This document shows, piece after piece, positions 12,565 through 56,614 of a DNA stretch of 64,000 nucleotides. The DNA lies in assembly GCA_965603355.1 (NCBI GenBank), contig CBFDCQ010000001.1:42350-106349 (forward strand). Reading direction: 5' to 3'. The position numbers were made by a program, and so were the translations under genes. Origin of the DNA: an uncultured bacterium. GTDB taxonomy: Bacteria; Hydrogenedentota; CAZGCA01; CBFDCQ01. Every line of letters starts with the position of its first letter. The stretch's first letter is position 1. The notes under the pieces were generated by a model, which did no database searches, had not been told where the DNA came from, and saw nothing but the letters and a program-made list of their open reading frames with translations.

Positions 12565-12587
12565 CGGACGAGGGGAGGGAGAGGAGC

Positions 12588-24598: not shown

Positions 24599-26536
24599 AT
24601 GAGACTTGCGCTCGTTAGAATGTCCCTCCGCGCGAAGCTGGTGGCAAGCTTCCTCATCGTCGTGCTGATTACCGGGACTACCGCGATATTGGTGGGCGTC
24701 AGCCTAATCGCCAACGGCGTCATCAGGCAAGCTGAAGATAACGTGCGTCTCGATCTGAACTCGGCCCGCGAGGTCTATCAGGAAAGAGTACGCCAAATCG
24801 ACACCGTCCTGCATTTCACTGCGATCCGTTCCGTCATGGTGCGAGACGCGCTCATCAACAAAGACAGAAAGACACTTGGAACGACGCTCGAAGAAGTGCG
24901 GCAGGCCAGTGCGATGGACATCCTGACCATAACCGACGGTGAAGGGCGCGTCCTCCATCGATGTCAAAACCCTCAGGTTTATGCTGATGATCTAAGCCAA
25001 GACGAGTTCGTGAAACGGGTCCTGCGCGACCGGGAATGTGCAATGGGAACCACCCTTGTGCCCGCAGAGCAACTGGTGAAAGAGAGCCCGGAACTCGCGG
25101 AACGAGCGCGGGTCAAGTTCGTCCAAACCGAGAAGGCGAAACCCAGACCTGGAACTGAAGAGACGACAGGTATGATGATGAAAGCGGCAGTCCCCATCTT
25201 TGGCGACAGCGGCGATGTTGTGGGGGTGCTTTATGGCGGAGACCTGCTCAACAAGGATAACGAGATCGTGGACCGGGTCAAAGCCATCGTGTATCGGGGC
25301 GAACGGTACAAGGGCAAAGAGACCGGTACCACGACGATCTTCCAGGGAGACTTGCGCATATCCACTAACGTCAGGAACGATGACGGTAAGCGGGCGATTG
25401 GAACGCGGGTGTCGGCGGAAGTCAACGATACCGTGCTCGTGAAAGGTTTGCCCTGGGTCGGGCGGGCGTTCGTCGTGAACGACTGGTACATCGCGGCGTA
25501 CGAGCCGATACGGAACGTAAACGACGAGATCATCGGTATGCTCTATGTCGGTGTGCTCGAAGAGAAGTTCGCGGACATGAAGAAGAGGACGCTGTGGATA
25601 TTTGTAGGCATAACGATAGCGGGCGCGGTGGCCGCTCTGGCGGTGTCGTACCTGCTTGAGCTGAGCATTCTTAAGCCGATCAGGGAACTGGCCCGAGGCG
25701 CCCATGAGCTCGCCGGAGGAAATCTCGAGTACCGGGTTAAAACGGCCTCAAAAGACGAGATGGGTGAACTGGGGAAAACATTCAACCTCATGGCCGAGAG
25801 CATCAAACAAAGGGACAGGGAGCTTAAAGATAGGACGCGGATGATGGTCGAATCGAAGCGGCTGGCAACGCTCGGCCAGCTCGCCGCCGGCGTGGCTCAC
25901 GAGATAAACAACCCGCTCGGAGGCATATTGGTGTACGCACATCTTCTGCTCGAAGACACGGGCATCGACGATCCCAGACGCGAGAATATGTCGAGGATCG
26001 TTAGGGAGACCACCAGGTGCCGTGACATAGTGAGGAACCTGCTCGATTTTTCGCGGCAAACCAGCCCCCGAGTCGAGGAGGCGGATATTAACGGAATAGT
26101 CGAAGAGGCGCTCGCTATGACGGTCCAGCGGCCGCGGTTCAGGGACGTCAGAGTCGAGTTGGACTTGTGCAGGACGCTGCCGCATGTTATGGTAGATGTA
26201 TCGCAGATCGAACAGGTCTTCAGGAATATCATTCAGAATGCCGCCGAAGCTATGGACGGTGAAGGCAGCATAAGCGTGAGCAGCAGGCTGTCCCGTGAGG
26301 ATGGCATGGTGGAAGTCTCGATAAGCGATACGGGACCAGGCATAGAGATCGAGCATATGGAAAGGTTGTTTGACCCGTTCTTCACCACCAAGGAGGTGGG
26401 GCACGGTACGGGTCTTGGTCTCGCTGTCAGTTATGGTATAGTGGAGAGGCACGGGGGGCGAATCAAGGTCGAGAGCGAGCCGGGAGCAGGTGCTGGTTTT
26501 ATCGTGCAGCTGCCTGTCAAACAGGGGGGTAAGTAG
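24599..26536 (+). CDS. sensor histidine kinase (periplasmic or Cache-like sensor, HAMP, HisKA, HATPase_c)
   Basis: TM1 LVASFLIVVLITGTTAILVGVSL, a roughly 280 aa extracytoplasmic domain, TM2, HAMP (LKPIRELARGAHELAGGNLEYRV), H-box LAAGVAHEINNPLGGI, N-box QNAAEAM, and G-boxes DTGPGI and GTGLGLAV. Confidence 0.85.
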   Translation: MRLALVRMSLRAKLVASFLIVVLITGTTAILVGVSLIANGVIRQAEDNVRLDLNSAREVYQERVRQIDTVLHFTAIRSVMVRDALINKDRKTLGTTLEEVRQASAMDILTITDGEGRVLHRCQNPQVYADDLSQDEFVKRVLRDRECAMGTTLVPAEQLVKESPELAERARVKFVQTEKAKPRPGTEETTGMMMKAAVPIFGDSGDVVGVLYGGDLLNKDNEIVDRVKAIVYRGERYKGKETGTTTIFQGDLRISTNVRNDDGKRAIGTRVSAEVNDTVLVKGLPWVGRAFVVNDWYIAAYEPIRNVNDEIIGMLYVGVLEEKFADMKKRTLWIFVGITIAGAVAALAVSYLLELSILKPIRELARGAHELAGGNLEYRVKTASKDEMGELGKTFNLMAESIKQRDRELKDRTRMMVESKRLATLGQLAAGVAHEINNPLGGILVYAHLLLEDTGIDDPRRENMSRIVRETTRCRDIVRNLLDFSRQTSPRVEEADINGIVEEALAMTVQRPRFRDVRVELDLCRTLPHVMVDVSQIEQVFRNIIQNAAEAMDGEGSISVSSRLSREDGMVEVSISDTGPGIEIEHMERLFDPFFTTKEVGHGTGLGLAVSYGIVERHGGRIKVESEPGAGAGFIVQLPVKQGGK

Positions 26537-27898
26537 ATGTCAGCATCGTTTTCTATCCTTGTAGTAGATGATGAGGAGGTTATGCGCGACTGTTGCGTGC
26601 AGATCCTGTCCCGAGACGGATGCCGCGTTGAGGTGGCCCACGACGGACTTTCCGGGCTTGAGAGAATAAGGAAGGAGCCGTTTGACGTAGTCATACTGGA
26701 TTGGAAAATGCCGGGCCTGAACGGACTGGACCTGCTTGACCGGATCGCGCAAACAAGCGCGGATACTGTTGTGATAGTAATGACGGGTTACGCTTCAGTC
26801 GAATTTGCAGTAGAGGCAATGAGGCACGGCGCGTACGACTTCATACCGAAACCGTTCCCGCCACGGGTACTTCGCGGGATAGTGGCGCGCGCTCTGGAAA
26901 AGCGCGGCTTCGCCAGGGATACGGTTTGTCCACCGAGCGAGCTTGAGACGTTGCGCGGCGTAGACTCTCTTGTTGGAGAGAGCGTCGTCATGAAAGCTAC
27001 AAAACAGCTCGTTAAACGCGCCGCTGCCACCGACAGTACTGTGCTGATCGCCGGCGAGAGCGGTACGGGCAAGGAACTGGTTGCGCGCGCACTGCACCAT
27101 CACAGTGCGCGCAGAGATGGTTCGTTTGTCACGGTCGATTCCGGCGGGTTGGTCGAGAACCTTATCGAGAGCGAACTCTTTGGTCACGTCAGAGGAGCTT
27201 TCACCGGGGCCACGTCTACTCGACAGGGCAGGTTCGAACTCGCTCATGGCGGAACACTGTTCCTGGATGACGTATCCACCCTTGGCTGGTCCGTCCAAGG
27301 AAAGCTCTTGCGCGCCTTACAGGAACGTGAGATTACAAGAGTCGGCAGCGGCCAGGTCATCAAGGTGGACGTGCGAATTATCGCCGCGACAAACAGCGAC
27401 CTGCTCTCCGACGTGGCCGCGGGAGGATTCAGAGAGGACCTTTTCTACCGGCTAAGTGTAATCCCGATCAATCTGCCGCCACTACGGGAGCGCAAGGAGG
27501 ATATTCCTCATCTCGCCAGCTTCTTCCTGAGAAAGTACAACGCCAAGCGTGCCGCAACCAAGGTCAGGAGCATCTCGGAAGAGGCGCTCAGGATGCTTGC
27601 TGACTACGATTGGCCCGGCAACGTGAGGGAGCTCGAAAATGTCATAGAGCGCGCGGTGGTAATGGCCGATAGCGAGACGGTCCGACCGCTCGACCTCGTC
27701 TGGCACCAGTTCTCATCCGCGGTTAGCCTCCGCGGCGCGCGGTCGGCCGGCGCGCGCCTTGAGGATATCGAAAAAGAACATATCAAGAGAACCTTGGCAA
27801 CGTTCAACAGGCACAAGGCCAAGACGGCTGACGCTCTCGGTATTGACCGCAAAACGCTCCGGAACAAGATGCGACGGTACAATATTGAGGAAGATTAG
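26537..27898 (+). CDS. sigma-54-dependent response regulator (NtrC family: REC, AAA+ sigma-54 activator, Fis-type HTH)
   Basis: REC segment ILVVDDEEVMRD...VILDWKMPGLNG, Walker A GESGTGKE, GAFTGA motif (RGAFTGATS), Walker B LFLDDV, and a C-terminal HTH (KTADALGIDRKTLRNKMRRY). Confidence 0.9.
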   Translation: MSASFSILVVDDEEVMRDCCVQILSRDGCRVEVAHDGLSGLERIRKEPFDVVILDWKMPGLNGLDLLDRIAQTSADTVVIVMTGYASVEFAVEAMRHGAYDFIPKPFPPRVLRGIVARALEKRGFARDTVCPPSELETLRGVDSLVGESVVMKATKQLVKRAAATDSTVLIAGESGTGKELVARALHHHSARRDGSFVTVDSGGLVENLIESELFGHVRGAFTGATSTRQGRFELAHGGTLFLDDVSTLGWSVQGKLLRALQEREITRVGSGQVIKVDVRIIAATNSDLLSDVAAGGFREDLFYRLSVIPINLPPLRERKEDIPHLASFFLRKYNAKRAATKVRSISEEALRMLADYDWPGNVRELENVIERAVVMADSETVRPLDLVWHQFSSAVSLRGARSAGARLEDIEKEHIKRTLATFNRHKAKTADALGIDRKTLRNKMRRYNIEED

Positions 27899-28056: not shown

Positions 28057-28075
28057 CTGGCACAAAAAATGCTAA
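28057..28075 (+). promoter_or_regulatory. candidate sigma-54 (-24/-12) promoter
   Basis: cTGGCAC-aaaaa-aTGCt compared with the consensus TGGCAC-N5-TTGCW. The GG and GC are correctly spaced and sit about 55 nt upstream of the 28127 start. Confidence 0.5.
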
Positions 28076-28126: not shown

Positions 28127-29278
28127 ATGGAGATTAGTGGTGCAACTGTCCTCGTCATTGACGACGAGGAATCGATGCGCGATTCCTGTTATCAGGCGCT
28201 GACGAAGGAGGGGTATCGTGTCGAGACGGCGGTGGACGCGGAGAGCGGCTTGCGCAAGGTGCGCGAGTTATCTCCCGACATCGTGCTCGTGGACCTCAAG
28301 ATGCCCCGCGTTGGTGGAACGGAAGTGTTGAAAGAGATAACCGCAATAGACCCGACGATCGTTGCAGTAGTGATCACGGGTTACGCAACGGTCGAATCGG
28401 CGGTCGAGGCCATGAAATGCGGCGCATACGATTTCCTTCCCAAACCTTTCACTCCGGACGAGCTCCGAATCGTCACGAAAAGAGGCCTGGAAAAGCGACG
28501 GCTGAGTGTCGAAATGGAGGCTCTTCGCAGGGAAAATGAGAGGATGAGAGAGAACTTCGTGACGGTTGTCACGCACGAAATGAGAGCGCCGCTGGTCGCG
28601 GTCGAACAGTACCTTGAAGTGATGCTGAAAGAGATGGCGGGCGATGTCACCGAGAAGCAGAAGGAGATACTCGAGCACAGTCGCAAACGAGTCGAGTGGC
28701 TGCTTACGCTGGTGAACGAATGGCTGAGCATGTCTCGCATCCAGCGGGGGAAAATAGTCGAGAGCCTCGAGACGGTAAAGATGCGGGAACTGCTCGAAGA
28801 ATCGGCCGCCCTGGTCAAGCCCCAAGCTGACGAGAAGGATATCAATATAGAGATCGAGGTGGCGAACGGAGCCGAGTCAATTGAAGGCGACATGGACGCT
28901 CTGAGCCACGTTTTCATGAATCTGGTGAGCAATGCGGTTAAGTACAACCACGAGGAAGGTTCTGTTTGCGTCAGAGCGATTGACAAGGACGATAGCATTG
29001 CCGTGGAGGTTGAGGACACGGGCGTGGGGATTCCCGAAGGTAGCTTGCCGTTCATTTTCGATGAGTTCTTCCGGGTAAAAACCGACGAAGGGCGGCGCGT
29101 GACGGGCACGGGTCTGGGATTAACGGTTGTCAAGAGGATTGTCGAGGCCCATCGCGGTCATGTGACCGTCAAGAGCGCTGTAGGACAAGGCACCACGTTT
29201 GTTGTGTTCTTACCGAAGAAGCAAACGATAGCGGAGCCGGGCATGGCAGAGAAGACCGGCAGCGTGAGTGAATCATAA
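28127..29278 (+). CDS. hybrid response-regulator/histidine kinase (REC, HisKA, HATPase_c) with no sensor or TM domain
   Basis: REC segment VLVIDDEESMRD...VLVDLKMPRVGG, a coiled coil, H-box VVTHEMRAPLVAVEQY, N-box NLVSNAVKYN, and G-boxes DTGVGI and GTGLGLTVV. Its stop overlaps the start of the next gene (TAATG). Confidence 0.85.
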   Translation: MEISGATVLVIDDEESMRDSCYQALTKEGYRVETAVDAESGLRKVRELSPDIVLVDLKMPRVGGTEVLKEITAIDPTIVAVVITGYATVESAVEAMKCGAYDFLPKPFTPDELRIVTKRGLEKRRLSVEMEALRRENERMRENFVTVVTHEMRAPLVAVEQYLEVMLKEMAGDVTEKQKEILEHSRKRVEWLLTLVNEWLSMSRIQRGKIVESLETVKMRELLEESAALVKPQADEKDINIEIEVANGAESIEGDMDALSHVFMNLVSNAVKYNHEEGSVCVRAIDKDDSIAVEVEDTGVGIPEGSLPFIFDEFFRVKTDEGRRVTGTGLGLTVVKRIVEAHRGHVTVKSAVGQGTTFVVFLPKKQTIAEPGMAEKTGSVSES

Positions 29279-30333
29279 TGAATACGCGGTTCATCTCTGA
29301 AGGCAATTTTGTCAGACTACTGGATCATCTGGCCGAACGCGGTCGAGTGTTCGTGGCGGAGCCGGTCGAGGACACCGGAAAGATAGCTTTTCGCGCCCGT
29401 CAAGAGGGTGAGGGTTTCGATTACACCGGTTTTCGCGCGACCCAGTCGCTCAAACCGTTCTTGTTTGTTGCGAGAGAGAAGGTGGCGGAATATCCCTGCG
29501 CGGCTGGGTCCGAGACGGTTCCTGCTGCGGAGCACGTGACCGTGGTAGGGGCGGCGGCGTGCGACCTTGCGGCGTTGAAGACCCTCGACGCAGTCTTCAT
29601 CTCTGAGGATTTTACGGACTGTTTCTATGCGGAGCGGAGGGCAAACACGCTGATCATCAGCATGGAGTGCACGGATCCACGCGACAGCTGTTTTTGCACG
29701 CTCATCGGCAATAAGCCGTATCCGGAAGCCGGATATGACCTGAACCTGGCGAAGGCCGGTGCCGGATATGTCGTCGAGGTGGGGTCCGAGAAGGGAGAAA
29801 GCCTCATCGGTGAACAGGCGTCTCTGTTTAAAGATGCCTCTAAGGAAACGCTCGCCGCGCGGGACAAGGCTCGCGAAGAGGCGGCGCGTCGAGTCGAGGA
29901 TATCAATCGCGGCGTTGAAGTGAGCAGGTCGCGACAAGAGATCCTGAAGCACGCTCCGGAAGATGAGGAATGGCACTCTCACGTGCAAACCTGCGTCGAG
30001 TGTGCAGCCTGCCTCTTCTGCTGTCCGACGTGTCACTGCTTCTTGCTTTACGACCAGAAGGGCGCGGAGAACTTCGAGCGGTTGAAGGTCTGGGACGCCT
30101 GTGTGTATGCAGGATACTCGCGCATGGCGGGTGGCGGGACGCCTAGAGCGTTTCTCGTGGAACGGTTCAGACACCGCTACGCGCACAAGTTCGACCAGAT
30201 TGTCGAGAGGCACGGTATTGAAGGTTGTTCGGGCTGCGGCAGGTGCATAGAAGCCTGTCCCGGCAACATTGACATGCGCAAAGTGTTCAAAGCCCTTGAC
30301 TCTGCGGCGTTAACCGAGAAGGTTGCGAGATGA
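29278..30333 (+). CDS. HydB/AsrA-like 4Fe-4S protein (sulfhydrogenase beta / anaerobic sulfite reductase A family)
   Basis: Cys clusters CVECAACLFCCPTCHCF and CSGCGRCIEACPG. The N-terminal 'ratio' domain and the 351 aa length fit HydB/AsrA-type subunits. Confidence 0.7.
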   Translation: MNTRFISEGNFVRLLDHLAERGRVFVAEPVEDTGKIAFRARQEGEGFDYTGFRATQSLKPFLFVAREKVAEYPCAAGSETVPAAEHVTVVGAAACDLAALKTLDAVFISEDFTDCFYAERRANTLIISMECTDPRDSCFCTLIGNKPYPEAGYDLNLAKAGAGYVVEVGSEKGESLIGEQASLFKDASKETLAARDKAREEAARRVEDINRGVEVSRSRQEILKHAPEDEEWHSHVQTCVECAACLFCCPTCHCFLLYDQKGAENFERLKVWDACVYAGYSRMAGGGTPRAFLVERFRHRYAHKFDQIVERHGIEGCSGCGRCIEACPGNIDMRKVFKALDSAALTEKVAR

Positions 30334-31145
30334 ACAATCTGTATTCCCCGATTCAGGCGCAAATCGAGGAAATCATAAAAGAGACGCCGACCAACAAGAC
30401 GTTCGTCATTCGGCCGGAAGCGCCGATACGTTTCAAGGCGGGCCAGTTCATGCAGCTCACGGTACCAGGCATGGGCGAGGCGCCGTTCACCCCCTCATCG
30501 TCGCCGGCCGTGACCGAGAAGATGGAGATCACCATACTCAAGACCGGCACGGTGACCGATGTGCTCCACACGATGCAAGCGGGAGATAACGTCGGATTGC
30601 GCGGCCCGTTCGGGAAAGGCTACCCGCTGGACAAGTTCGAGAACAAGGAGGTCCTGGTGGTCGGTGGCGGAGTGGGACTGGCCCCTCTGAGATCACTGAT
30701 TCTGGCTATGTTCGAGGATATGGGAAAGTATAAGCGGCTCTCGATAAAATATGGTGCGAAGACGCCGGAGGAGCTGCTTTTCAGGACGAGTTTCGACGAA
30801 TGGTCCAAGAAGCCGCAAACGGATCTTACCGTAACCATCGACGTTCCGGCGCCCGGATGGGAGGGCAAGGTAGGGCTCGTCACGAGCCTGCTGGACGATG
30901 TCGACGTGGACAAGCCCAACAGCTATGTCGTCTCCTGCGGGCCGGGCATCATGCTGCGGTTCGTGACGTATAAGCTTCTCGAAATCGGATTCGAGCCGGA
31001 ACAGATATACTTGTCGATGAACAGGAAAATGAGCTGCGGTGTCGGCAAGTGCGGCAGATGCGAGGTCGGACCGTACTATCTATGCAAAGACGGTCCGGAT
31101 ATGAACTACGCGAAGATTAAGGACGTGCCAAACGTTTTCAGTTGA
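30330..31145 (+). CDS. HydG/AsrB/PyrK-like FAD/NAD(P)H-binding oxidoreductase with a C-terminal [2Fe-2S] site
   Basis: FAD-binding barrel (RFKAGQFMQLTVPGMGEAPFTPSS), nucleotide-binding GGGVGLAPL, and a C-terminal C..CGVGKCGRCEV cluster motif. 4-nt overlap with the upstream gene. Confidence 0.8.
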   Translation: MNNLYSPIQAQIEEIIKETPTNKTFVIRPEAPIRFKAGQFMQLTVPGMGEAPFTPSSSPAVTEKMEITILKTGTVTDVLHTMQAGDNVGLRGPFGKGYPLDKFENKEVLVVGGGVGLAPLRSLILAMFEDMGKYKRLSIKYGAKTPEELLFRTSFDEWSKKPQTDLTVTIDVPAPGWEGKVGLVTSLLDDVDVDKPNSYVVSCGPGIMLRFVTYKLLEIGFEPEQIYLSMNRKMSCGVGKCGRCEVGPYYLCKDGPDMNYAKIKDVPNVFS

Positions 31146-31169: not shown

Positions 31170-32588
31170 ATGGTTGAGTCAAGAAAAAACATTTGCCTTC
31201 TCTGCTCGCTCGGTTGCGGCCTGATAGTTGATCTGGAATGCGACGAGCCGGTCAACCTCGAGTATGACACGGAAAATGGCGTGAACCGAGGCAAACTGTG
31301 CGCGAAAGGTAATTACATTCTGGAGCTGCTGAACGACCCCTTGCGTCTTGATGTGCCCAAGAAAGACGGCAAACCGATCAGGTGGGAACAGGCGGCAGAT
31401 GAGGTGGCGGATGCCCTGCGTGCCGTTCAGGGCGGCAAGACTGCGGCCGTCGTGCTCTCCGGTGATGCGTCGTGCGAGGACGTCGGGTTGGCCTTTGCGT
31501 TTGCAGCCGATTGCACCGGAGCCGGCAAAGCTGCGATAAGTCTCCCCACCGGCGACGATAAGGTGGTGTCAGCACTCGCGGAAACGTCCGGCGGCGTTGC
31601 GCAGGCCACTCTGGACGATGTCGAGAACTCCGTGTGCACGATCGCCGTGGGGGATCCGTTTGCCAGATGTCCCGTTATAGCCGGGAGAGTTCTTGCCGCG
31701 CGAAATGCGGCCCGCGAGAACTCTCTCAACGTGGTCTCTCGAGAGAGCAACATGACGTCGCGGTTCGCTGCGACCCACCTCCTTGGACCCGAGCGAGATA
31801 GCATGCTGGATCTTGTTGCCGCAGTGGTGGAGGCGCGGGGCGGCGCGAAGGAAAAGTGGTTGAATCAACTGGTCAAGGGCGTGGATGCCGGTTCGGACGC
31901 GCAGAAATTGGCGAAGAGCTTCGTTGAGTCCGAGCGGGCGGTAGTGGTGTTGTCCACGGACGATCCGGTGGTCGCACAACTGGCGAACGCTCTCGTCAAG
32001 GCTGCCGGCGACACGAAGGGACTTTTCGCGCTGCACGATTACGGTAACGCGCGCAGTATTGCGGAGATTTCATCCGGTGACGTTTCGGCCGAGGACGTGA
32101 TCAAGTCTGCGGCCCGTGGGGAGATAGAGGTTCTGCTCGTACTGGGGGCAGATCTCGTGTCGTCATATCCGAACCTGGATGTGAACGGAGCGCTGTCTGA
32201 AGTGCAACTGCTTGTTGCGGGAGCACCGTTTCCGAACAAGACGACATCTCTGGCCGGCATGGTTCTGCCGACTGCGCTGTGGATCGAGCAGGATGGCACG
32301 TTCAATGGTGCTCAATGCCAGCGGGTCGTCGCCCCACCTGGAGGTGCAATGTCGTATGGCGACATACTGAAGGCCGTCGCCAAAGCGACGGGCGTTGAGT
32401 TGCGTGCACACGAAGCGCCAGAAGCGCTCGCGGAAGCGGCCCTTGACGAGGGCAAGGCGGCGGCAATTGCTAAAGCGGCTCGCGAGGAGGCAGTGACATC
32501 ACCCGTCGTGTCGACGGCAACGTGTTTTGCGGACGGTTCCCTAACGGACAGAGTGAGTTGGGTTAAGATGGTAGAAAGAGTTCCGTGA
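31170..32588 (+). CDS. FdhA/NuoG-like molybdopterin-oxidoreductase-family protein, short form (472 aa)
   Basis: N-terminal 4Fe-4S motif CLLCSLGCGL...C-x3-C (CAKGNY) typical of the MopB Fe4S4 domain, then the start of a MopB-like domain (PIRWEQAADEVADAL). About 250 aa shorter than catalytic FdhH/FdhA. Confidence 0.6.
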   Translation: MVESRKNICLLCSLGCGLIVDLECDEPVNLEYDTENGVNRGKLCAKGNYILELLNDPLRLDVPKKDGKPIRWEQAADEVADALRAVQGGKTAAVVLSGDASCEDVGLAFAFAADCTGAGKAAISLPTGDDKVVSALAETSGGVAQATLDDVENSVCTIAVGDPFARCPVIAGRVLAARNAARENSLNVVSRESNMTSRFAATHLLGPERDSMLDLVAAVVEARGGAKEKWLNQLVKGVDAGSDAQKLAKSFVESERAVVVLSTDDPVVAQLANALVKAAGDTKGLFALHDYGNARSIAEISSGDVSAEDVIKSAARGEIEVLLVLGADLVSSYPNLDVNGALSEVQLLVAGAPFPNKTTSLAGMVLPTALWIEQDGTFNGAQCQRVVAPPGGAMSYGDILKAVAKATGVELRAHEAPEALAEAALDEGKAAAIAKAAREEAVTSPVVSTATCFADGSLTDRVSWVKMVERVP

Positions 32589-33077
32589 ATGAAGAAGCTG
32601 TTTGTAGATCTCGATCTCTGCATAGGATGTCAAGCACATAGCGTCGCCTGCAGTCGCGTAAACCACGACATCCTGACGATGCAGAGCGGCGAGATACCGG
32701 AGGAAGGCACGCTGCCTGTCGTGTGCAGACACTGCGAGACCGCCGCGTGCGTCGCTGCTTGTCCGAACGAGTCGATGAAGAAGCACGAGGACGGCATCGT
32801 TAGGAGAAACATGGCGACATGCACCGGCTGCATGAGCTGTACGCTGGCGTGCCCGTTCGGGACGCTGACTCGCGGCATGAGACTGGCCCGGCACTCGTCG
32901 AGCAAGTGCGACCTGTGCGCGCCGAGGGTAGAACGCGGGCTTGAACCCGCCTGCGTTGCGACGTGTCCCACAAGCGCGCTACAGTTTAGAGAGGTTGAAG
33001 AGGTCTACGAGGCGAAAGACGTTCTCGTGGTGGGAGCACATACAATCGGACATAGCCCGTACATAAGGAGAGCCTAG
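32589..33077 (+). CDS. HycB-like poly-ferredoxin (4x [4Fe-4S])
   Basis: CIGCQAHSVAC, CRHCETAACVAACP, CTGCMSCTLACP and CDLCAPR...CVATCP. Size and cysteine spacing match HycB/HyfA. The ATG overlaps the previous stop. Confidence 0.8.
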   Translation: MKKLFVDLDLCIGCQAHSVACSRVNHDILTMQSGEIPEEGTLPVVCRHCETAACVAACPNESMKKHEDGIVRRNMATCTGCMSCTLACPFGTLTRGMRLARHSSSKCDLCAPRVERGLEPACVATCPTSALQFREVEEVYEAKDVLVVGAHTIGHSPYIRRA

Positions 33078-33096: not shown

Positions 33097-34035
33097 TTGG
33101 TGAGGATGATGAGTGCATTTGGCGTACCATATTTCCTGGCTGTGTTCGCCGTAACGGCTGTTGTAGGACTGGTGACGAGCTGGGTGGACAGAAAAGTCAC
33201 CGCGCGGGTGCAAGCGCGGGTTGGTCCGCCGTGGTTCCAACCGTTTGCGGATTTCGTGAAGCTGCTAGGCAAAGAGACGCTCGTGCCCGAAGGCAGCCGT
33301 CAGAAAGGCTTCCTCGTCGCGCCGCTGTTGGCACTCGTTGGCGTGTCGCTTGGCGCGGCGGCGCTCGTGTCAGGAGGTGTACTTGGCAAGGAAGGCTTTA
33401 TCGGAGACATAGTAGTTGTGCTGTACCTGCTCACGATACCGTCAGCGGCGCTGATACTCGGCGCGGCCTCGACCGGCAACCCTATGGCGTCTGTCGGGGC
33501 GAGTCGCGAGATGAAGCTCATACTCGCGTACGAGCTGCCGTTCCTTATCGTAGTGCTTACGGCCGTGTACAAAGCGCAGGCCGGTTTCATGATCGACAAG
33601 ATCGTGGACTACCAGGCTCAGAACGGCGCGTTCATATGGAGCATTTCGGGAGTCATCGGGTTCATCGTTGCGATACTGTGCATTCAGGGCAAGCTGGGGT
33701 TGGTGCCGTTTGACGCGCCGGAGGCTGAGCAGGAGTTGATGGGCGGTGTTCTTACAGAGTACTCCGGCGTCCCGCTGGCGCTGTTCAAGCTCAGCAAAGC
33801 GATGATGCTGAGCGTTCTGACAGTCTTTCTGGCGGTCATATTCTTTGGCGGAATGCAATTCAAGGGCATCGATATCCTGTGGAGTATCTTGAAGTATCTC
33901 GTGCCGGTAGTGCTGGTGGTCTTGATCAGAAACACGAACCCGAGGTTGAGGATTGACCAGATAATGAAGCTGTTCTGGGGTCCGCTTACGGTGCTGGCCC
34001 TGATCGCTCTGTTGCTGGCAAGGTTCAACCTCTGA
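33097..34035 (+). CDS. membrane subunit NuoH/HycD/MbhM-like
   Basis: Polytopic membrane protein, 312 aa, with a conserved NuoH-like segment (GLVPFDAPEAEQELMGGVLTEYSG). Confidence 0.85.
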   Translation: MVRMMSAFGVPYFLAVFAVTAVVGLVTSWVDRKVTARVQARVGPPWFQPFADFVKLLGKETLVPEGSRQKGFLVAPLLALVGVSLGAAALVSGGVLGKEGFIGDIVVVLYLLTIPSAALILGAASTGNPMASVGASREMKLILAYELPFLIVVLTAVYKAQAGFMIDKIVDYQAQNGAFIWSISGVIGFIVAILCIQGKLGLVPFDAPEAEQELMGGVLTEYSGVPLALFKLSKAMMLSVLTVFLAVIFFGGMQFKGIDILWSILKYLVPVVLVVLIRNTNPRLRIDQIMKLFWGPLTVLALIALLLARFNL

Positions 34036-34055: not shown

Positions 34056-34487
34056 ATGAGCGTTAAGATGTGGGGACTGAAGAAGTCGCCCTGGGTGTAC
34101 CACGTAGCGCTGTCACCCTGCAATAACTGCGACATAGAGATACTCGACCTGCTGACTCCGAGATTCGATGTGGAACGTTTTGGAATAAAGCTCGTGGGCA
34201 GTCCCAGACACGCTGACGCCCTGCTTGTTACCGGATCCGTAAACCGGCACGTTCTCCCCAGGTTTGTCGAGCTATACAAGCAGACGGCGAAACCGTGCGT
34301 GGTGTTCGCGATAGGCTCCTGCGGTCTGTCATCGACTATGTTCAGAGATAACTACAACATCGTCGGCCCCATTGACAAGGTCGTGAGACAGATCGATCCT
34401 AACGCCATCATCGCGTACGTGCCGGGATGTCCGCCAAAACCGGAGGCGATGATCTCCGGAGTGGTCAAGGCGCTGAGCGTGTTATAG
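34056..34487 (+). CDS. [NiFe]-hydrogenase small subunit, NuoB-like (HycG/MbhJ/EchC-type)
   Basis: SPCNNCDIE (compare HycG SCNGCEIE), GSCG and GCPPKPE provide the four Cys of the proximal [4Fe-4S]. Confidence 0.85.
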   Translation: MSVKMWGLKKSPWVYHVALSPCNNCDIEILDLLTPRFDVERFGIKLVGSPRHADALLVTGSVNRHVLPRFVELYKQTAKPCVVFAIGSCGLSSTMFRDNYNIVGPIDKVVRQIDPNAIIAYVPGCPPKPEAMISGVVKALSVL

Positions 34488-34499: not shown

Positions 34500-34955
34500 A
34501 TGAGTGGTAGCGTCGCGCTGACAGCGGTCAAAGAGAGCATGCCGGCAAAGATTTTGGAAATCGTGGAGAGATCTCCCGCGCGCGCATACGTATACATTGC
34601 GCCGGAGGAGATAGTCGCAGCGTCGCGGTTCATGTTCGAGGAGTGCGGTGTGCGGCTCGCCACGGTGTCCGGTGTAGACACGAGGAGCGGCATCGAGCTG
34701 GTTTACCATTGGATGAGCGCGAAGGACCATCAGTTCATCATGATCAAGACAAAAGTCAAGAAACCGTTCCCGGAAATAGACTCGGTCGGCTCGTTTCTGC
34801 CGGCGGCGGTTTGGATTGAGAGGGAAATCCACGACATTCTGGGTGTGGTTTTCAGAGGGCACCCTGATTTCAGGAAACTCATTCTTTCAGATGATTGGCC
34901 TGAGGGAATCCACCCCTATAAGCGCGGCGTGAGATTCGGGGAGTTTAAGGCATGA
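34500..34955 (+). CDS. NuoC-like subunit (MbhK/EchD-type)
   Basis: 151 aa NuoC/30-kDa-subunit fold (LVYHWMSAKDH...WIEREIHDILGVVFRGHPD). Overlaps the large-subunit gene by 4 nt. Confidence 0.8.
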   Translation: MSGSVALTAVKESMPAKILEIVERSPARAYVYIAPEEIVAASRFMFEECGVRLATVSGVDTRSGIELVYHWMSAKDHQFIMIKTKVKKPFPEIDSVGSFLPAAVWIEREIHDILGVVFRGHPDFRKLILSDDWPEGIHPYKRGVRFGEFKA

Positions 34956-36184
34956 AAAGGACGATAGTACCGCTCGGCCCGTTTCACCCTCTGCTGGAGG
35001 AGGCGGAGCATTTTCAGCTTTACGTCGAGGGTGAAACTGTCGTTGACATAGACATGCGCATCGGCTACATGCACCGTGGAATTGAGAAGATGAGCCAGTA
35101 CAAGACGTTCGACCAAGTACCTTTCACCGTCGAGCGCATCTGCGGCATCTGCTCCACCTCCCACCCGATAGCCTATGTGAACGCCGTGGAGGACCTCGCG
35201 GGAATAGAGATCCCAGAGAGAGCGAAGTATATCAGGAACATCGTCGCCGAGCTTGAACGGTTGCATAGTCACATGTTATGGGTGGGACTCGCCGGTCACT
35301 TCATCGGGTACGATACGGTGTTCATGTGGGCCTGGAAATATCGGGAGCCGATTCTCGACATCTTCGAGCTAATAAGCGGCAATCGCAACCATTATGCTAT
35401 GATGAAGCCCGGCGGTGTCAGACGCGACATCAAGGAGGAGGATTTCCCTGCGATAATCTCGATGCTCGACACGCTGGCTAAGGGCAATGAGCTTTTCACC
35501 GGCGCGGTCGTGGATGACCCGGTAATTCACGCGAGGACAAAAGGCGTCGGAATCCTGAGTAAGGAGGATGCGATTTCCTACGGTACTGTCGGGCCCACTG
35601 TGCGAGGTTCGGACATATCTGATGATATTCGGACGGATGACCCGTACGCGGGTTACGACCTGGTCGATTGGGACGTGATCACGTACGAGGGAGGAGACGT
35701 GTTCGCCAAAGCGGCAGTAAGGTTGCTGGAGAACTTCGAGTCGATCAAGATCATAAGGCAAAGCCTCGAGAAGATGCCGCCCGGACCGATTGAGACGGAA
35801 GTCAGGGAAATACCGCCCGGCGAGGGCGTCGGTCACGCGGAAGCGCCGCGCGGCGAGGTGTTCCATTATGTGCGCAGCGACGGGTCGGCCTGTCCCGTGC
35901 GACACAAGATTCGCGCGCCAAGCTTCGTGAACATACCGTCGTTCAAAGCTACCTGCATCGGCGAGACTATAGCCGATGTCGCTCTTATCACGGCTTCGGT
36001 TGACCCGTGCTATTGCTGCACCGAACGGATGGCGGTGGTTGACCGACAAACTGAGGACGTTCTCATGTCCGGCGAAGAGTTGGTGCGCATGAGCCGGGAG
36101 AAGACCAAAGAGATCAAGGAGGGGCTTGGGCAGGAAACGCCCATTGACAAGCTTGCCCGTAAACTGCAGAGAGGAGAGTTGTAG
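34952..36184 (+). CDS. [NiFe]-hydrogenase large subunit, group 4 (NuoD-like; MbhL/EchE/HycE-type)
   Basis: N-terminal Ni-Fe ligand motif RICGICSTSH and C-terminal DPCYCCTER (DPCxxCxxR), both intact. 410 aa. Confidence 0.9.
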   Translation: MKRTIVPLGPFHPLLEEAEHFQLYVEGETVVDIDMRIGYMHRGIEKMSQYKTFDQVPFTVERICGICSTSHPIAYVNAVEDLAGIEIPERAKYIRNIVAELERLHSHMLWVGLAGHFIGYDTVFMWAWKYREPILDIFELISGNRNHYAMMKPGGVRRDIKEEDFPAIISMLDTLAKGNELFTGAVVDDPVIHARTKGVGILSKEDAISYGTVGPTVRGSDISDDIRTDDPYAGYDLVDWDVITYEGGDVFAKAAVRLLENFESIKIIRQSLEKMPPGPIETEVREIPPGEGVGHAEAPRGEVFHYVRSDGSACPVRHKIRAPSFVNIPSFKATCIGETIADVALITASVDPCYCCTERMAVVDRQTEDVLMSGEELVRMSREKTKEIKEGLGQETPIDKLARKLQRGEL

Positions 36185-36234: not shown

Positions 36235-38064
36235 ATGAACTTGCTCCTTTATCCGATACTGGTTCCGCTTGCGGGCGGACTGTTGGCGCTACTGATGCCG
36301 CGTGCGCTCAAGGGGTTGAGAGAGCTGGTCTGCATTGTGGCGACCGGCGCGACAGTCTACCACGCCGCGCAGATAGTGAGGATAAGCAGCCTCGGCGAGC
36401 GCCTTGACTTCTCACGTCCCTGGTTGAGCATAGAGAACTTCGTGTTCTCGATTAGCCTGCGCGCGGACGCGCTTAGCCGGTTCATCGTCCTGGCTGCCTC
36501 CATATTCGGGCTGCTAATTGTCCTGTACTCCATAGGATATATGAGGAACAAGGACAGGCTCCCCGAGTATTACGCTTACATTGTCTGGACAGTCGCCGCG
36601 GCTAACGCCGCATTGCTGGCGGATAACCTCATACTGCTGCTCGTTTCGTGGGAAGTGGTCACCGTGCTGCTGTTCTTCCTAATCACGATAGCCGGCGAAG
36701 GGTCGCCGCCGGCCGCCGGGAAGACTTTTGTAATGATCGGTGCGGCGGACTGCGCCATGCTGCTCGGAATAGTCCTCATTTGGCGGGTGATGGGCACTCT
36801 CGAGATCAGTGCATTGAGACACGTACCGATGCAGACCGGTATGATGCATCTGATTTACGCGCTTCTGCTTGCCGGGGCAATTACAAAAGCGGGCGCTATG
36901 CCGGGCCATTCCTGGATACCGAAAGCGGCGGAGATTGCGCCGACATCTGTCATGGCGTTTCTGCCGGCGGCGCTCGACAAGCTGCTCGGCATCTATCTGC
37001 TCGCCCGCATGTCGCTATACATGTTCGCGCCCAGCGAGGCAATGAAGCTGGCGCTGCTTATCATAGGCGCTGTCACTATCATATTGGCAGTGATGGCGGC
37101 CCTCGTGCAACACGAGCTCAAGAAGCTTCTGTCCTGTCACGCAGTAAGCCAGGTCGGCTACATGGTAATGGGTATCGGAACCGGCGTCCCGCTCGGCATC
37201 ATTGGCGGCCTTTTCCACATGTTGAACAACGCAATCTACAAATGTTGCCTGTTCCTGACCGCCGGCGCCGTCGAACGTAAAGCGGGTACCACTGAGCTTG
37301 AGAAGCTCGGTGGACTTGCCTCGGCAATGCCCGTCACGTTCGGCGCATGCGTGATCGCGGCGTTAGCCATCTCCGGAGTGCCGCCGCTCAATGGGTTCGC
37401 GTCCAAATGGTTCGTCTACCAGGGGGTGCTCCAGGTTGGTCGTCCGGTGTTCGTCGTGGCGGCGATGTTCGGCAGCGCGCTGACGCTTGCGTCGTTTATA
37501 AAGGTCATCTATTCGGTGTTCCTCGGCAAGCGCCCGGAATCGCTCCGTTCCATCAAGCCGGTAGGTTTCTCGATGACTTTTCCGATGATCTTCCTCGCGC
37601 TATTGTGCATAGTATTCGGTGTATTCTACCATCTACCAGTCAAACAGTTCATAGCCCCCGCGCTCGGAAGTCAGGCGCTGGTATTACCGCAACTTGGATT
37701 GTGGGACTCGACTCTTGCTACCGGGCTGATCGTTATTGGGCTCGTGATCGGGATCATCATCTATCTGTTTGGGACGGCCTTCAAAGGGCGCACCACGTCT
37801 ATCTTCGTGGGCGGCGAGACACTGGACGAGGAAGAGAGCCGCGTACCTGGCACGGGCTTTTACGAGACGGTAACCTCCATGCGCGGTCTCGGCACGATCT
37901 ATCGGGACGCGGAACAGGGTGCGTACGACCTGTACGTGCTTGGGGCACGGTACGGACAGAAGATCGTTGACGTGTTCAGGGGAATGCATACGGGTATAGT
38001 GTCGACGTACGTCGCTTTTTGCGTGGCTGGACTTGGCATAATACTGTTCTTACTGTTGAGGTAA
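36235..38064 (+). CDS. Mrp/NuoL-family antiporter-like subunit (MrpA/MbhH-like), 609 aa
   Basis: About 16 TM helices and conserved NuoL/MrpA segments (WEVVTVLLFFLI, HAVSQVGYMVMGIG). Confidence 0.85.
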   Translation: MNLLLYPILVPLAGGLLALLMPRALKGLRELVCIVATGATVYHAAQIVRISSLGERLDFSRPWLSIENFVFSISLRADALSRFIVLAASIFGLLIVLYSIGYMRNKDRLPEYYAYIVWTVAAANAALLADNLILLLVSWEVVTVLLFFLITIAGEGSPPAAGKTFVMIGAADCAMLLGIVLIWRVMGTLEISALRHVPMQTGMMHLIYALLLAGAITKAGAMPGHSWIPKAAEIAPTSVMAFLPAALDKLLGIYLLARMSLYMFAPSEAMKLALLIIGAVTIILAVMAALVQHELKKLLSCHAVSQVGYMVMGIGTGVPLGIIGGLFHMLNNAIYKCCLFLTAGAVERKAGTTELEKLGGLASAMPVTFGACVIAALAISGVPPLNGFASKWFVYQGVLQVGRPVFVVAAMFGSALTLASFIKVIYSVFLGKRPESLRSIKPVGFSMTFPMIFLALLCIVFGVFYHLPVKQFIAPALGSQALVLPQLGLWDSTLATGLIVIGLVIGIIIYLFGTAFKGRTTSIFVGGETLDEEESRVPGTGFYETVTSMRGLGTIYRDAEQGAYDLYVLGARYGQKIVDVFRGMHTGIVSTYVAFCVAGLGIILFLLLR

Positions 38065-38072: not shown

Positions 38073-38627
38073 ATGATATTCTTGCTATATTTGCTGCTCC
38101 TTTTCATGATCGCCGGCGCGATAATCGCCATTGAGACGAAAGACCTGCTCTCGAGCGTGATATGTGTAGGCGCGATCGGACTGGGACTGGCAATAATCTT
38201 TCTGTTGCTTGGCGCACCTGACCTCGCCATCGTACAAGTAGTCGTGGAGGTTCTCAGCCTCGTGTTGCTGCTGCGCGTGGTGGTTAAGCGTGAGGACGTT
38301 ACCATCGCTCACCGGTACAGGTATGGCGAGGTGTTCGCGACCGCGACCGCGCTCGTGTTTTTCGGCGTATTCATTGTGCTGGCCTCCATGGCCTACAAGG
38401 AAATGCCGGCGTTTGGTCAACCGATCCTCAATGTATCGCAGCGTTACATCGCGGAGGGTATGGACAAGGTGGGAGCGCCAAACCTCGTCACAGGGATCTT
38501 GCTGGATTACCGCGCCTACGATACCCTCGGTGAGGCAACAGTTATTTTCACAGCAATCATTGGCAGTTTGGTCATCCTGAGAAAGAGAGGCAGGATACGT
38601 CATGAAGGGGATGAGCCTCATAGTTAG
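38073..38627 (+). CDS. small Mrp-module membrane subunit (MbhD/MrpB-N-like)
   Basis: ATG with RBS GAGG directly after the MrpA-like stop. Hydrophobic 184 aa protein, and the only subunit type of the Mbh/Mrp set otherwise unassigned here. Confidence 0.55.
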   Translation: MIFLLYLLLLFMIAGAIIAIETKDLLSSVICVGAIGLGLAIIFLLLGAPDLAIVQVVVEVLSLVLLLRVVVKREDVTIAHRYRYGEVFATATALVFFGVFIVLASMAYKEMPAFGQPILNVSQRYIAEGMDKVGAPNLVTGILLDYRAYDTLGEATVIFTAIIGSLVILRKRGRIRHEGDEPHS

Positions 38628-39033
38628 GACTATAACCCGGCTGCTTGTCGGGTTCATTCTCGTGTACGGCGCCCACATCGTGCTGTACGGGCATCTGACG
38701 CCGGGCGGCGGTTTTGCCGGCGGCGTTATGCTGGCGTGTGCACTGATACTTCTCGTCCTGGCTTTCGGCAAGGAAGCGGCGCTGGATATCGTGAGCGAGA
38801 ATGCCGCATCGGCGTGGGACTGCATAGGAGCTCTTCTGTTCCTGCTTATAGCCCTGCTTGGGCTGACGGGAGGCTATTTCTTCAGGAACGTCCTCGACAA
38901 GGGCAAACCGTTCGACCTGCTCAGTGCAGGGACTCTTATGTGGAGCAATATCGCGATCGGGATCAAGGTAGGCGCGTGCTTGTTCCTGGTATTTCTGGTG
39001 CTGGCGGCCTTCAGGATACGCGACGAAGGGTAG
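38602..39033 (+). CDS. MnhB/MrpB-domain subunit (MbhE-like)
   Basis: MrpB hallmark HLTPGGGFAGGVMLA and four TM helices. Confidence 0.7.
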   Translation: MKGMSLIVRTITRLLVGFILVYGAHIVLYGHLTPGGGFAGGVMLACALILLVLAFGKEAALDIVSENAASAWDCIGALLFLLIALLGLTGGYFFRNVLDKGKPFDLLSAGTLMWSNIAIGIKVGACLFLVFLVLAAFRIRDEG

Positions 39034-39040: not shown

Positions 39041-39385
39041 ATGGGACCGTATATTCTGTGTTCGATAATTCTCTTGCTCGGTGTGTACGCTGTCGTGGCG
39101 AAGAAGAACCTGATAAAGATCATCATTGGACTCCTTATCATCGAGTACGCCGTGAATCTTATGCTTGTGCTCATCGGATACAGGGCCGGCGGAGAAGCTC
39201 CGATACGTACGGAGGCAGCTCAGGATGCGGCCCGTATCTTGGTCGATCCGCTACCGCAGGCGCTGATCGTAACCTCGATAGTCATCGGTCTCGGATTGAC
39301 CGCGATGGTGGTGGCATTGTGCATTCGACTATACGAGAAGTACGGCACGTTTGACGTGCTTCTCATCAGAAGGTTGAGAGGATGA
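39041..39385 (+). CDS. MnhC/MrpC (NuoK-like) subunit
   Basis: 114 aa with three TM helices and a NuoK-like pattern (IIIGLLIIEYAVNLMLVLIGY). Confidence 0.8.
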   Translation: MGPYILCSIILLLGVYAVVAKKNLIKIIIGLLIIEYAVNLMLVLIGYRAGGEAPIRTEAAQDAARILVDPLPQALIVTSIVIGLGLTAMVVALCIRLYEKYGTFDVLLIRRLRG

Positions 39386-40897: not shown

Positions 40898-41383
40898 ATG
40901 AGACGGATCGTACATTTCATTGTAGCTCTGATTGTCTGGCTACTGCTCACGTGGAGCGTGACCGTCCAGAACGTGATTGCCGGCGTCATCGTCGCGGCCC
41001 TGAGCGCAGCGCTGTTCGGTCACTTTTTCCCGAGTGACTCGAGGCTCATGCTGAATTTCAGCCGAGTCTTGTGGTTCCTTTACTACATCCCCGTGTTTCT
41101 GATTCACTGCTTCAAAGCCAACCTGGATGTCGCGTACCGAGTGCTGCACGTGAACGTGCCTATACGCCCCGGCATTGTGAGGGTTAAAACGACGCTCAAG
41201 AGCGATATGGCGTTGACATTCCTGGCAAACTCCATAACGCTGACGCCCGGCACGCTGACGGTGGACATCATCGGTAATGACATGTACATCCACTGGATAA
41301 ACGTGGCCAGCGACGATCCGGAAGAACAGACGCTTATTATCGTGAAGAGGTTTGAGGATATTCTCAAGAGGGTGTTCGAGTAA
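40898..41383 (+). CDS. MnhE/MrpE (MbhA-like)
   Basis: 161 aa with two N-terminal TM helices and an MrpE-like C-terminal domain. Confidence 0.7.
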   Translation: MRRIVHFIVALIVWLLLTWSVTVQNVIAGVIVAALSAALFGHFFPSDSRLMLNFSRVLWFLYYIPVFLIHCFKANLDVAYRVLHVNVPIRPGIVRVKTTLKSDMALTFLANSITLTPGTLTVDIIGNDMYIHWINVASDDPEEQTLIIVKRFEDILKRVFE

Positions 41384-41652
41384 TGATGATTACCGCACCG
41401 CTGCTATTCATGGCCCTGCTCGTGTTCTCGTCCTTCCTGTGCCTTTACAGAATAGGTGCCGGACCCACTGCGCCCGACCGCACGGTAGCGATCGACATTC
41501 TCGGCACGCTCGTGGTGGGCTTCTGCGCGATCATGACGTGGCAAACAGGCAAGGCGTTCTACATGAACATAGCAATAACATGGGCGCTGCTCAGTTTCAT
41601 AGGCACAATAGCGCTGGCCAAATACCTGGAGGGGCGTGGATTCGATGAGTGA
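41383..41652 (+). CDS. MnhF/MrpF (MbhB-like)
   Basis: 89 aa with three TM helices (ALLVFSSFLCLYRI...). Overlaps its neighbours. Confidence 0.7.
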   Translation: MMITAPLLFMALLVFSSFLCLYRIGAGPTAPDRTVAIDILGTLVVGFCAIMTWQTGKAFYMNIAITWALLSFIGTIALAKYLEGRGFDE

Positions 41653-56612: not shown

Positions 56613-56614
56613 TC

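Follow-up and report, generated by a model that had tools for sequence, protein, structure and literature searches.

The closest described relative of the locus analysed here is the 16-subunit Hun complex, which Glass et al. (10.1101/536078) described in Atribacteria, Omnitrophica, Elusimicrobia, Kosmotoga and others. The DNA examined here (the window: 64,000 nucleotides of contig CBFDCQ010000001.1, from an uncultured bacterium of the Hydrogenedentota) carries two adjacent genes at 29278-31145 that an initial sequence-only reading had taken for a HydB/AsrA-like and HydG/AsrB-like pair placed in front of a membrane-bound hydrogenase. Judged by gene order and signature motifs, the operon that they open is a further member of the known, named Hun family. 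The pair, HunA and HunB, probably (we would put it at roughly 0.6) forms the NAD(P)H-linked input of a Hun-type, ion-translocating group-4 [NiFe] hydrogenase, whose core resembles those of membrane-bound hydrogenase (Mbh, or MBH) and formate hydrogenlyase (FHL) and is joined to an Mrp module.

In the published gene order, an AsrA-like and an AsrB-like gene are followed by a HycB-like gene, by NuoH-, NuoB-, NuoC- and NuoD-like genes, by Mrp-like genes and, last, by a NuoI-like gene (10.1101/536078). HunA and HunB are the AsrA/AsrB-like proteins, HunC is an iron-sulfur protein, HunEFGP make up the NiFe module and HunH-O the Mrp-like part; HunG bears the L1/L2 signature CGIC...CYCC, and some metagenome-assembled genomes (MAGs) hold a gene for a 4Fe-4S molybdopterin protein between HunB and HunC (10.1101/536078). 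The same authors proposed ferredoxin as the electron donor and predicted that H2 production is coupled to H+/Na+ translocation (10.1101/536078). Matheus Carnevali et al. (2019) presented the same cluster in Saganbacteria RX5A as an 'enigmatic' group-4 hydrogenase, likened its AsrA/AsrB/CooF-like genes to NuoE/NuoF in their Supplementary Note 5 and reported a molybdopterin-binding domain in its molybdopterin protein (PMC6349859). Méheust et al. (2020) wrote of an 'Mbh-Mrp-oxidoreductase type' of unknown function, found in Elusimicrobia among others (10.1101/765248), and relatives of the Saganbacteria-type enzyme are reported from Zixibacteria and Omnitrophica (PMC6349859; 10.1101/765248). Several MAG papers label these enzymes as group 4g, ferredoxin-dependent Mbh, related complexes being group 4g by HydDB, and the JGI annotation of cluster members is 'sulfhydrogenase subunit beta (sulfur reductase)'. 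According to its genome paper, the isolate Caldithrix abyssi has no group-4 hydrogenase and is therefore not a model organism for Hun. The module in the window, which had been thought undescribed for Mbh/Mrp enzymes, is thus already on record. Added here are the end-to-end match of the pair to the beta and gamma subunits of a solved sulfhydrogenase, the family-wide conservation of the cofactor motifs, the recognition of the molybdopterin protein as a dead relic, and the Rex genes and Rex boxes found in other lineages.

The window's gene order, hunA to hunP with a molybdopterin gene between hunB and hunC, is identical to that of Glass et al.; its HunG has the CGIC...CYCC signature, and its AsrA/AsrB-like pair stands without AsrC. 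It differs from the published family in that two-component and sigma-54 regulators, not Rex, flank the operon, in the shortness (472 residues) of its molybdopterin relic, and in that the published donor is ferredoxin whereas the evidence here favours NAD(P)H. Unlike the Saganbacteria protein, for which the molybdopterin-binding domain is reported as kept, the window's version has lost it.

In the window, 17 genes form an operon for a group-4 [NiFe] hydrogenase and its complete Mrp module, and the two genes in question are the first two hydrogenase genes in it. Window proteins were assigned by Pfam scans, NCBIfam profiles and relatives in the PDB, some Pfam families being those recorded for identical genes on contig L001.

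29278..30333, + strand: HunA, 351 residues, a HydB/AsrA-like multi-[4Fe-4S] protein (Pfam, NCBIfam, match to 9nez_B)
30330..31145, + strand: HunB, 271 residues, a HydG/AsrB-like flavoprotein with FAD, NAD(P) and [2Fe-2S] sites (Pfam, NCBIfam, match to 9nez_C)

Both open reading frames (ORFs) lie where the sequence-only reading had placed them, and Pfam and NCBIfam agree with its family call. HunA has the Fer4_22 dicluster domain (E 4.7e-27) and matches the NCBIfam models for ShyB (1e-44), HydB (5e-43) and AsrA (2.5e-36). In HunB, Pfam finds FAD_binding_6, NAD_binding_1 and DHODB_Fe-S_bind, and the best NCBIfam match is AsrB (5.8e-66, 222 bits), with hydrogenase gamma at 1e-61; the hallmarks of an FNR/PyrK-type flavoprotein (FAD binding, GGxGxxP/CGP and a C-terminal 2Fe-2S site) are all present, and the FAD motif GGGVGLAPL and 2Fe-2S motif CGVGKCGRCEV quoted beforehand both occur in its translation. 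Among solved structures, HunA aligns end to end with the beta subunit of Pyrococcus furiosus sulfhydrogenase I (PDB 9nez_B, E 5e-40) and HunB with its gamma subunit (9nez_C, E 5e-51). A family alignment of 18 diverse HunA homologues shows 15 invariant cysteines, some of them in two CxxCxxCxxxCP-type motifs and others in an additional group near the N terminus. Across 67 HunB sequences, the flavin motifs GE.PFS and RGP.G.G.P, the dinucleotide motifs GG.G.AP.R and CGP, and the [2Fe-2S] motif C.G.C..C...C.DGP are each 90-100% conserved.

When profile hidden Markov models (HMMs) for AsrA/AsrB, HydB/HydG and PyrK were compared, the families proposed earlier held, but none of the curated equivalogs (HydB, ShyB, AsrA, HydG, ShyC, AsrB or PyrK) reached its cut-off for HunA or HunB. 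With the two group-3b beta models, HunA scores 152.9 (cut-off 690) and 147.3 (cut-off 750), and with the two gamma models HunB scores 177.5 (cut-off 600) and 174.9 (cut-off 650); with the AsrA and AsrB models TIGR02910 and TIGR02911, HunA gives 125.6 (cut-off 323.15) and HunB 222.2 (cut-off 288.6). Since they fall under every cut-off, the two proteins form a distinct subfamily within the HydB/AsrA plus HydG/AsrB superfamily. Sulfhydrogenase I is like Hun in that both subunits match over their full length, Hun having kept every cluster cysteine as well as the FAD/NAD(P) motifs; the difference lies in the partner, which for its beta and gamma subunits is the cytoplasmic group-3b delta/alpha pair and for HunAB is membrane bound and of group 4. 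There is no hydD or hydA in the window, and across hun loci the partner is the group-4 core. Salmonella AsrABC resembles Hun in the AsrB and AsrA matches, but the window holds no siroheme subunit AsrC and both scores stay under the cut-offs.

That the pair belongs to the membrane-bound enzyme, as had been proposed, is borne out by its relatives. These were found by scanning an alignment of HunA homologues against one genome per species and keeping the best 80 loci, and their gene order was read by tblastn with all window proteins. The loci span more than 12 phyla and come from Latescibacterota, Planctomycetota, Eisenbacteria, Dehalococcoidia, Calditrichota, Omnitrophota, Sumerlaeota, Gemmatimonadota, Spirochaetota, Auribacterota, Atribacterota, Fermentibacteria, KSB1, Actinomycetota and Nitrospiraceae; the nearest among these species representatives are Latescibacterota and Planctomycetota MAGs with 51-54% identity in HunA. 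Wherever the contig is long enough, the order HunA-HunB-(molybdopterin protein)-HunC-NuoH-NuoB-NuoC-NiFe-Mrp is kept, and in 58 of the 80 loci the sequence reaches the large subunit. Gene content, homologies, conserved cofactor motifs and conserved synteny of Hun are matters of direct observation. The only locus with ample downstream sequence but no hydrogenase is L047, from a 1.14-Mb Omnitrophota genome, where (9375-13926) an orphan hunA without hunB lies behind rex and beside nadA, nadC and part of nadB; the gene is possibly a remnant, or else its HunA-like product has a different role.

The most direct control comes from a Calditrichaceae MAG (L034), in which a complete group-3b hydBGDA set with its maturation protease (4671-9972) lies directly upstream of hun. 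The group-3b hydD and hydA next to hun have beta and gamma genes of their own, distinct from hunA and hunB, which answers the condition under which the pair was to be counted as part of a separate enzyme. This group-3b beta and gamma score 343 and 340 bits on the sulfhydrogenase models, and HunA and HunB of the same genome 158 and 217 bits (best models ShyB and AsrB). By individual model the group-3b pair reaches 343 (HydB) and 283/271 (ShyC/HydG), also under the archaeal cut-offs and about twice the Hun scores. From the synteny with a group-4 core over more than 12 phyla and these two distinct pairs side by side, HunAB is best placed as a paralogous lineage of its own that serves only the group-4 enzyme. 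By tblastn, a second beta/gamma-like pair also lies upstream of hun in L051, L059, L046 and L069. A distantly related second group-4/Ehr-like cluster is found immediately upstream of hun in L064 (99-7726) and L081 (265-3288), with 28% identity in NuoH, 34% in NuoB and 34% in the large subunit.

The remaining genes that follow hunB in the window are these (the start of HunI is that of the gene call on L001).

31170..32588, + strand: truncated molybdopterin-family protein, 472 residues, between hunB and hunC (Pfam, NCBIfam, alignment)
32589..33077, + strand: HunC, HycB/CooF-type poly-[4Fe-4S] protein (Pfam Fer4_11)
33097..34035, + strand: HunD, NuoH/MbhM-like membrane subunit (Pfam NADHdh, E 3.6e-68)
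34056..34487, + strand: HunE, NuoB-like hydrogenase small subunit (Pfam Oxidored_q6; four cysteines at the expected positions in the translation)
34500..34955, + strand: HunF, NuoC-like subunit (Pfam Complex1_30kDa)
34952..36184, + strand: HunG, group-4 [NiFe] large subunit (motifs RICGICSTSH and DPCYCCTER; PDB relatives)
36235..38064, + strand: HunH, NuoL/MbhH-like antiporter subunit (Pfam Proton_antipo_M, Proton_antipo_N)
38073..38627, + strand: HunI, MbhD/MbhE-like subunit (Pfam MbhD, MbhE)
38602..39033, + strand: HunJ, MnhB-like subunit (Pfam MnhB)
39041..39385, + strand: HunK, NuoK/MnhC-like subunit (Pfam Oxidored_q2)
39382..40881, + strand: HunL, MrpD-like antiporter subunit (Pfam Proton_antipo_M, E 2.4e-74)
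40898..41383, + strand: HunM, MnhE-like subunit (Pfam MNHE)
41383..41652, + strand: HunN, MrpF-like subunit (Pfam MrpF_PhaF)
41636..41998, + strand: HunO, MrpG-like subunit (Pfam PhaG_MnhG_YufB)
42002..42613, + strand: HunP, NuoI/HycF-like 2x[4Fe-4S] subunit (Pfam Fer4 families)

Four gene junctions were inspected in the DNA itself, and at three of them the stop codon of one gene overlaps or adjoins the start codon of the next. A kinase gene (28127..29278) ends over the start of hunA (TAATG), hunA and hunB overlap by ATGA, and the molybdopterin gene abuts hunC (TGAATG). These junctions bear out the claim of translational coupling; at the fourth, 24 nucleotides separate hunB from the molybdopterin gene. 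The reported lack of HydA/HydD or AsrC nearby holds as well: every window ORF large enough was screened, by Pfam scan or by the families recorded for identical L001 genes, and none is asrC, hydA, hydD or a hyp gene, all these absences being statements about the 64-kb window. The screen gave instead genes for Bat/MoxR aerotolerance, a protease, peptide ABC transport, type II secretion and the cell envelope.

The core has the features that define group 4: both CxxC NiFe-ligand motifs in the large subunit, a small subunit like NuoB and a membrane subunit like NuoH. Because HunG has both ligand motifs and its nearest solved relatives are MbhL of P. furiosus MBH (6cfw_L, 5e-87) and HycE of Escherichia coli FHL-1 (7z0s_E, 2e-85), we take the enzyme, as predicted from its residues, to be a genuine hydrogenase and not an Ehr/Mbx-type relic. 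The two motifs are the majority state in the family (CGIC type in 42 of 61 related loci, CYCC type in 47 of 61). After DPCYCCTER, HunG continues for 50 residues (30-60 across the family), an extension that implies cleavage by a HycI-type endopeptidase; neither such a maturation protease nor a hyp gene lies in the window. The best PDB relative of HunP is HycF of FHL (7z0s_F, 8.6e-22), and HunC has among its relatives HycB3 of the hydrogen-dependent CO2 reductase (HDCR; 8.7e-17) and HycB of FHL (6.8e-15), which suggests an FHL-like ancestry of the peripheral arm. Hun also resembles FHL-1 in that a molybdopterin gene is next to the one for the HycB-like protein, which recalls the docking of FdhF on HycB, and it resembles MBH (6cfw) in its Mrp-type membrane arm. 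It differs from both in a molybdopterin subunit that is dead or absent and in a flavoprotein-pair donor module that FHL and MBH lack. The membrane arm varies in L020, L021, L074, L079, L054, L067 and L085; variants among these loci lack MnhE/F/G or MbhD/E-MnhB genes or carry the NuoI-like gene immediately behind that for the large subunit, and the antiporter genes of L079 are transcribed divergently.

The molybdopterin-family protein had been called FdhA-like, but as a formate dehydrogenase it does not survive inspection. It keeps the N-terminal CxxCxxxC...C [4Fe-4S] motif, with four cysteines visible (Molybdop_Fe4S4, 4.2e-10), but in alignment with formate dehydrogenases the catalytic Cys/Sec-His pair is missing, 'LPTGDD' standing where FdhF has 'ARLCHA' (generally 'ARLC(U)HA'). 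The Pfam scan gives no C-terminal Molydop_binding match (PF01568), and the score with the Fdh-alpha model is 98.5 against a cut-off of 666. The protein also matches NuoG residues 214-577 and Nqo3. The Cys/Sec-His pair is absent from all 18 molybdopterin proteins compared (the window's and 17 inserts of related loci). In 48 of 66 related operons there is no such gene, HunB being followed directly by HunC at gaps of 7-522 nucleotides, so the protein is dispensable. Of the longer inserts (about 565-620 residues), some still have part of the C-terminal domain and others the Fe4S4 domain alone; the window's form is the shortest. The protein is probably a decaying, catalytically dead relic that contributes at most one relay cluster and a docking surface. 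The HunB-HunC gap is 1.76-2.1 kb in L025, L026, L029, L032 and other loci, with inserts at graded stages of decay: some retain a Molydop_binding remnant, Calditrichia copies are recognisable by the Fe4S4 domain alone, and those of L026 and L042 have lost a cluster cysteine.

Known donors of group-4 (energy-converting) hydrogenases are formate, carbon monoxide and ferredoxin, and we know of no such enzyme for which the use of NAD(P)H has been demonstrated; P. furiosus sulfhydrogenase I uses NADPH. That the pair exchanges electrons between NAD(P)(H) and the membrane complex, as the sequence-only reading had it, is nevertheless the reading that the comparisons support best. It is favoured by the full-length match to 9nez_B and 9nez_C, by the conserved FAD and NAD(P) motifs and by rex genes and Rex boxes at other hun loci, and the likeness to NuoE/NuoF drawn by Matheus Carnevali et al. 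(PMC6349859) points the same way. The FAD/NAD(P) site of HunB is, moreover, the only conserved substrate-type site of the input arm, the other candidate site, in the molybdopterin protein, being dead and usually absent; NAD(P)H is therefore the most likely point of entry. HunB would bind FAD and NAD(P)(H) and hold a [2Fe-2S] cluster, HunA would supply about three [4Fe-4S] clusters, and together they would form a dehydrogenase head like the beta/gamma part of a soluble hydrogenase. Electrons would pass from NAD(P)H to the FAD and [2Fe-2S] of HunB, through the HunA clusters and, where present, the [4Fe-4S] cluster of the relic to HunC, and would reach the NiFe site of HunG by way of HunP (HycF/NuoI-like) and HunE (NuoB-like). 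Overall, the complex would then catalyse NAD(P)H + H+ <-> NAD(P)+ + H2 while H+ or Na+ moves through HunD and HunH-O; the nucleotide used, the working direction and the coupling to ions are inferred. With textbook potentials of -320 mV for NAD(P)H and -414 mV for H2, we calculate that making H2 from NAD(P)H costs about 18 kJ/mol at 1 atm H2 and yields roughly 5-16 kJ/mol at 1-10 Pa H2. As the reaction runs downhill at 1-10 Pa, about one ion per H2 could be pumped in H2-scavenged sediments, and at higher H2 the ion gradient could drive NAD(P)H-dependent H2 release.

In about 19 of 71 loci, from at least five phyla, the gene next upstream of hunA encodes Rex, a repressor that senses NADH/NAD+ (among these loci are L030, L036, L042, L043, L047, L048, L052, L055, L056, L060, L062, L063, L068, L070, L075, L076, L077 and L083). 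In the 1.1 kb that precede hunA (81 kb in total) there are 16 copies of the Rex-box palindrome TGTGA-N6-TCACA, spread over 14 of 78 loci; the other 1.09 Mb of sequence from these loci contain none. The Hun paper (10.1101/536078) does not mention this association.

Several points weigh against NAD(P)H as the donor. Rex also controls ferredoxin-dependent fermentative enzymes, so control by Rex shows a link to NADH balance, not a substrate, and the window itself has neither a rex gene nor a Rex box. HunA and HunB lie so far under the curated cut-offs that their function is extrapolated across subfamilies. An invariant Arg/Lys after beta-strand 2 of HunB is also found in the NADH-specific NqrF and is therefore not diagnostic for NADH or NADPH. 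In the literature searched there is no biochemical characterisation of any Hun complex; Glass et al. name ferredoxin as the donor (10.1101/536078), and most MAG papers annotate a ferredoxin-dependent group 4g enzyme.

Were Hun dependent on ferredoxin, HunABC would relay its electrons as in Mbh, and in HunB the FAD/NAD(P) domain would be a vestige or a surface on which ferredoxin docks. We regard this as unlikely, though it deserves to be taken seriously: it was proposed by Glass et al. (10.1101/536078), the HunG core is closest to the ferredoxin-dependent MbhL, and HydDB puts related large subunits in group 4g, predicted to be ferredoxin coupled. A vestige would not be expected to keep its FAD/NAD(P) motifs so strongly in 67 sequences from many phyla, however, and the association with Rex points to NADH. 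Nor is such a module needed to use ferredoxin, which P. furiosus MBH takes directly at MbhN with nothing like HunAB; the C-terminal [2Fe-2S] domain of HunB, moreover, would sit in the place that ferredoxin has in FNR-type enzymes. The two donors might also be combined, ferredoxin entering at HunC/HunP and its electrons going either to H2 or through HunA and HunB to NAD(P)+. Hun would then be an ion-pumping ferredoxin:NAD(P)+ oxidoreductase as well as a hydrogenase, or NAD(P)H and ferredoxin would jointly drive H2 production. A peripheral arm rich in clusters, with several exposed Fe-S proteins, would suit such a branch point, our own calculation makes NAD(P)H to H2 alone thermodynamically marginal, and Mbx offers a precedent, having once been proposed as a ferredoxin:NADP+ oxidoreductase (quoted in PMC6349859). 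As Pfam and NCBIfam detect no second flavin or bifurcation-type module, as a ferredoxin site is without direct evidence and as a linear chain is simpler, we think this distinctly improbable.

It is very improbable that HunAB is a sulfur or polysulfide reductase module driven by H2 or another reductant, by analogy with in-vitro S0 reduction by sulfhydrogenase. The closest solved relatives are indeed the beta and gamma subunits of sulfhydrogenase I, and the JGI name of cluster members includes 'sulfur reductase', but neither the operon nor the rest of the window has a sulfur-handling gene, and AsrC is missing from the window. Reduction of S0 by sulfhydrogenase is, besides, regarded as non-physiological. 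We give least credence of all to the idea that the pair serves a separate group-3b or AsrC enzyme and is a chance neighbour, or that the whole is a formate hydrogenlyase run by the molybdopterin subunit, although the HMM names (HydB/HydG/AsrA/AsrB and FdhA) point that way. The synteny with a group-4 core over more than 12 phyla, the overlapping or abutting codons at most of the window junctions read and the two distinct pairs of L034 all speak against a separate enzyme, and the synteny and that paralogue control led us to reject the idea that the pair was taken over from a group-3b or Asr enzyme. A formate hydrogenlyase was likewise rejected, since the catalytic residues are lost from 18 of 18 inserts and most operons do without the protein.

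An NAD(P)H-linked Hun would be a functional analogue of complex I. In both, a flavo-Fe-S head that oxidises NAD(P)H (NuoE/F/G, the N-module, in complex I) would feed a NuoI/NuoB chain, with an inactive molybdopterin-family adaptor, for which the window's relic, resembling the C-terminal domain of NuoG, would stand in Hun. The flavoproteins are unrelated, FNR/PyrK-type with FAD in Hun and FMN-binding NuoF in complex I, and the acceptor would be H+ at the NiFe site where complex I reduces quinone. We tentatively suggest, at somewhat less than even odds, that Hun enzymes as a family are NAD(P)H-linked ion-translocating hydrogenases whose peripheral arm is an independent re-invention of the complex I N-module. 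By this analogy the head may have been built from an FNR-type flavoprotein/Fe-S pair, with a decaying, dead formate-dehydrogenase relic as a NuoG-like adaptor in some lineages.

Other features upstream and at the end of the window's operon bear on its regulation.

24599..26536, + strand: Cache/HAMP sensor histidine kinase, a probable upstream regulator (Pfam families of the identical L001 gene)
26537..27898, + strand: sigma-54-dependent response regulator with receiver, Sigma54_activat and HTH_8 domains (Pfam families of the identical L001 gene)
28058..28072, + strand: sigma-54-type -24/-12-like element TGGCACAAAAAATGC, intergenic, 55 nucleotides upstream of the kinase gene that overlaps hunA
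28127..29278, + strand: receiver-HisKA-HATPase hybrid kinase (Pfam), its TAATG overlap with hunA indicating co-transcription with hun
42635..43105, + strand: single-domain response regulator that closes the operon (Pfam Response_reg)

Homologues of the hybrid kinase, with 54-57% identity, lie upstream of hunA in L007-L009 and L011, relatives from Latescibacterota and Planctomycetota. The element at 28058..28072 has one mismatch to TGGCAC-N5-TTGC and is a consensus match only, the number of such matches in the whole window being that expected by chance; in L011 the consensus is matched perfectly, at a similar distance from hunA. As the element is present in the window and L011 only, a sigma-54 promoter was rejected as a feature of the family. 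From its gene content, the window's lineage appears to have replaced Rex by this two-component/sigma-54 regulator set.

Elsewhere in the window, a MoxR AAA+/DUF58/VWA/BatA/BatD operon of the aerotolerance type occupies 2173-10066. A type II secretion cluster (secretin, GspE, GspF, GspG, pseudopilins and GspK/M-like genes) lies on the - strand at 47334-59618 and a lipid A acyltransferase gene at 46184-47101, which together indicate a diderm bacterium. An ORF with a recombinase domain at 63100-63594, near the end of the window, is possibly the edge of a mobile element.

For the window itself, our results mostly mean a correct annotation, that of a Hun operon under two-component/sigma-54 control. 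If Hun is NAD(P)H linked, fermenters in H2-scavenged, energy-starved sediments would have a means to reoxidise NAD(P)H as H2, by which they could gain or spend ion-motive force, and Rex-controlled, ion-coupled disposal of NAD(P)H as H2 would be a common trait of sediment fermenters. The label 'group 4g, ferredoxin-dependent' for Omnitrophota, Cloacimonadota, Auribacterota, Atribacterota and others would then need revision, and metabolic reconstructions of many candidate phyla would change. The hun family also offers a natural series, from operons with no molybdopterin protein to those with a long or a short relic, for the recruitment of a dehydrogenase head and a dead adaptor onto an Mbh/FHL-type core, a series that parallels the origin of complex I.

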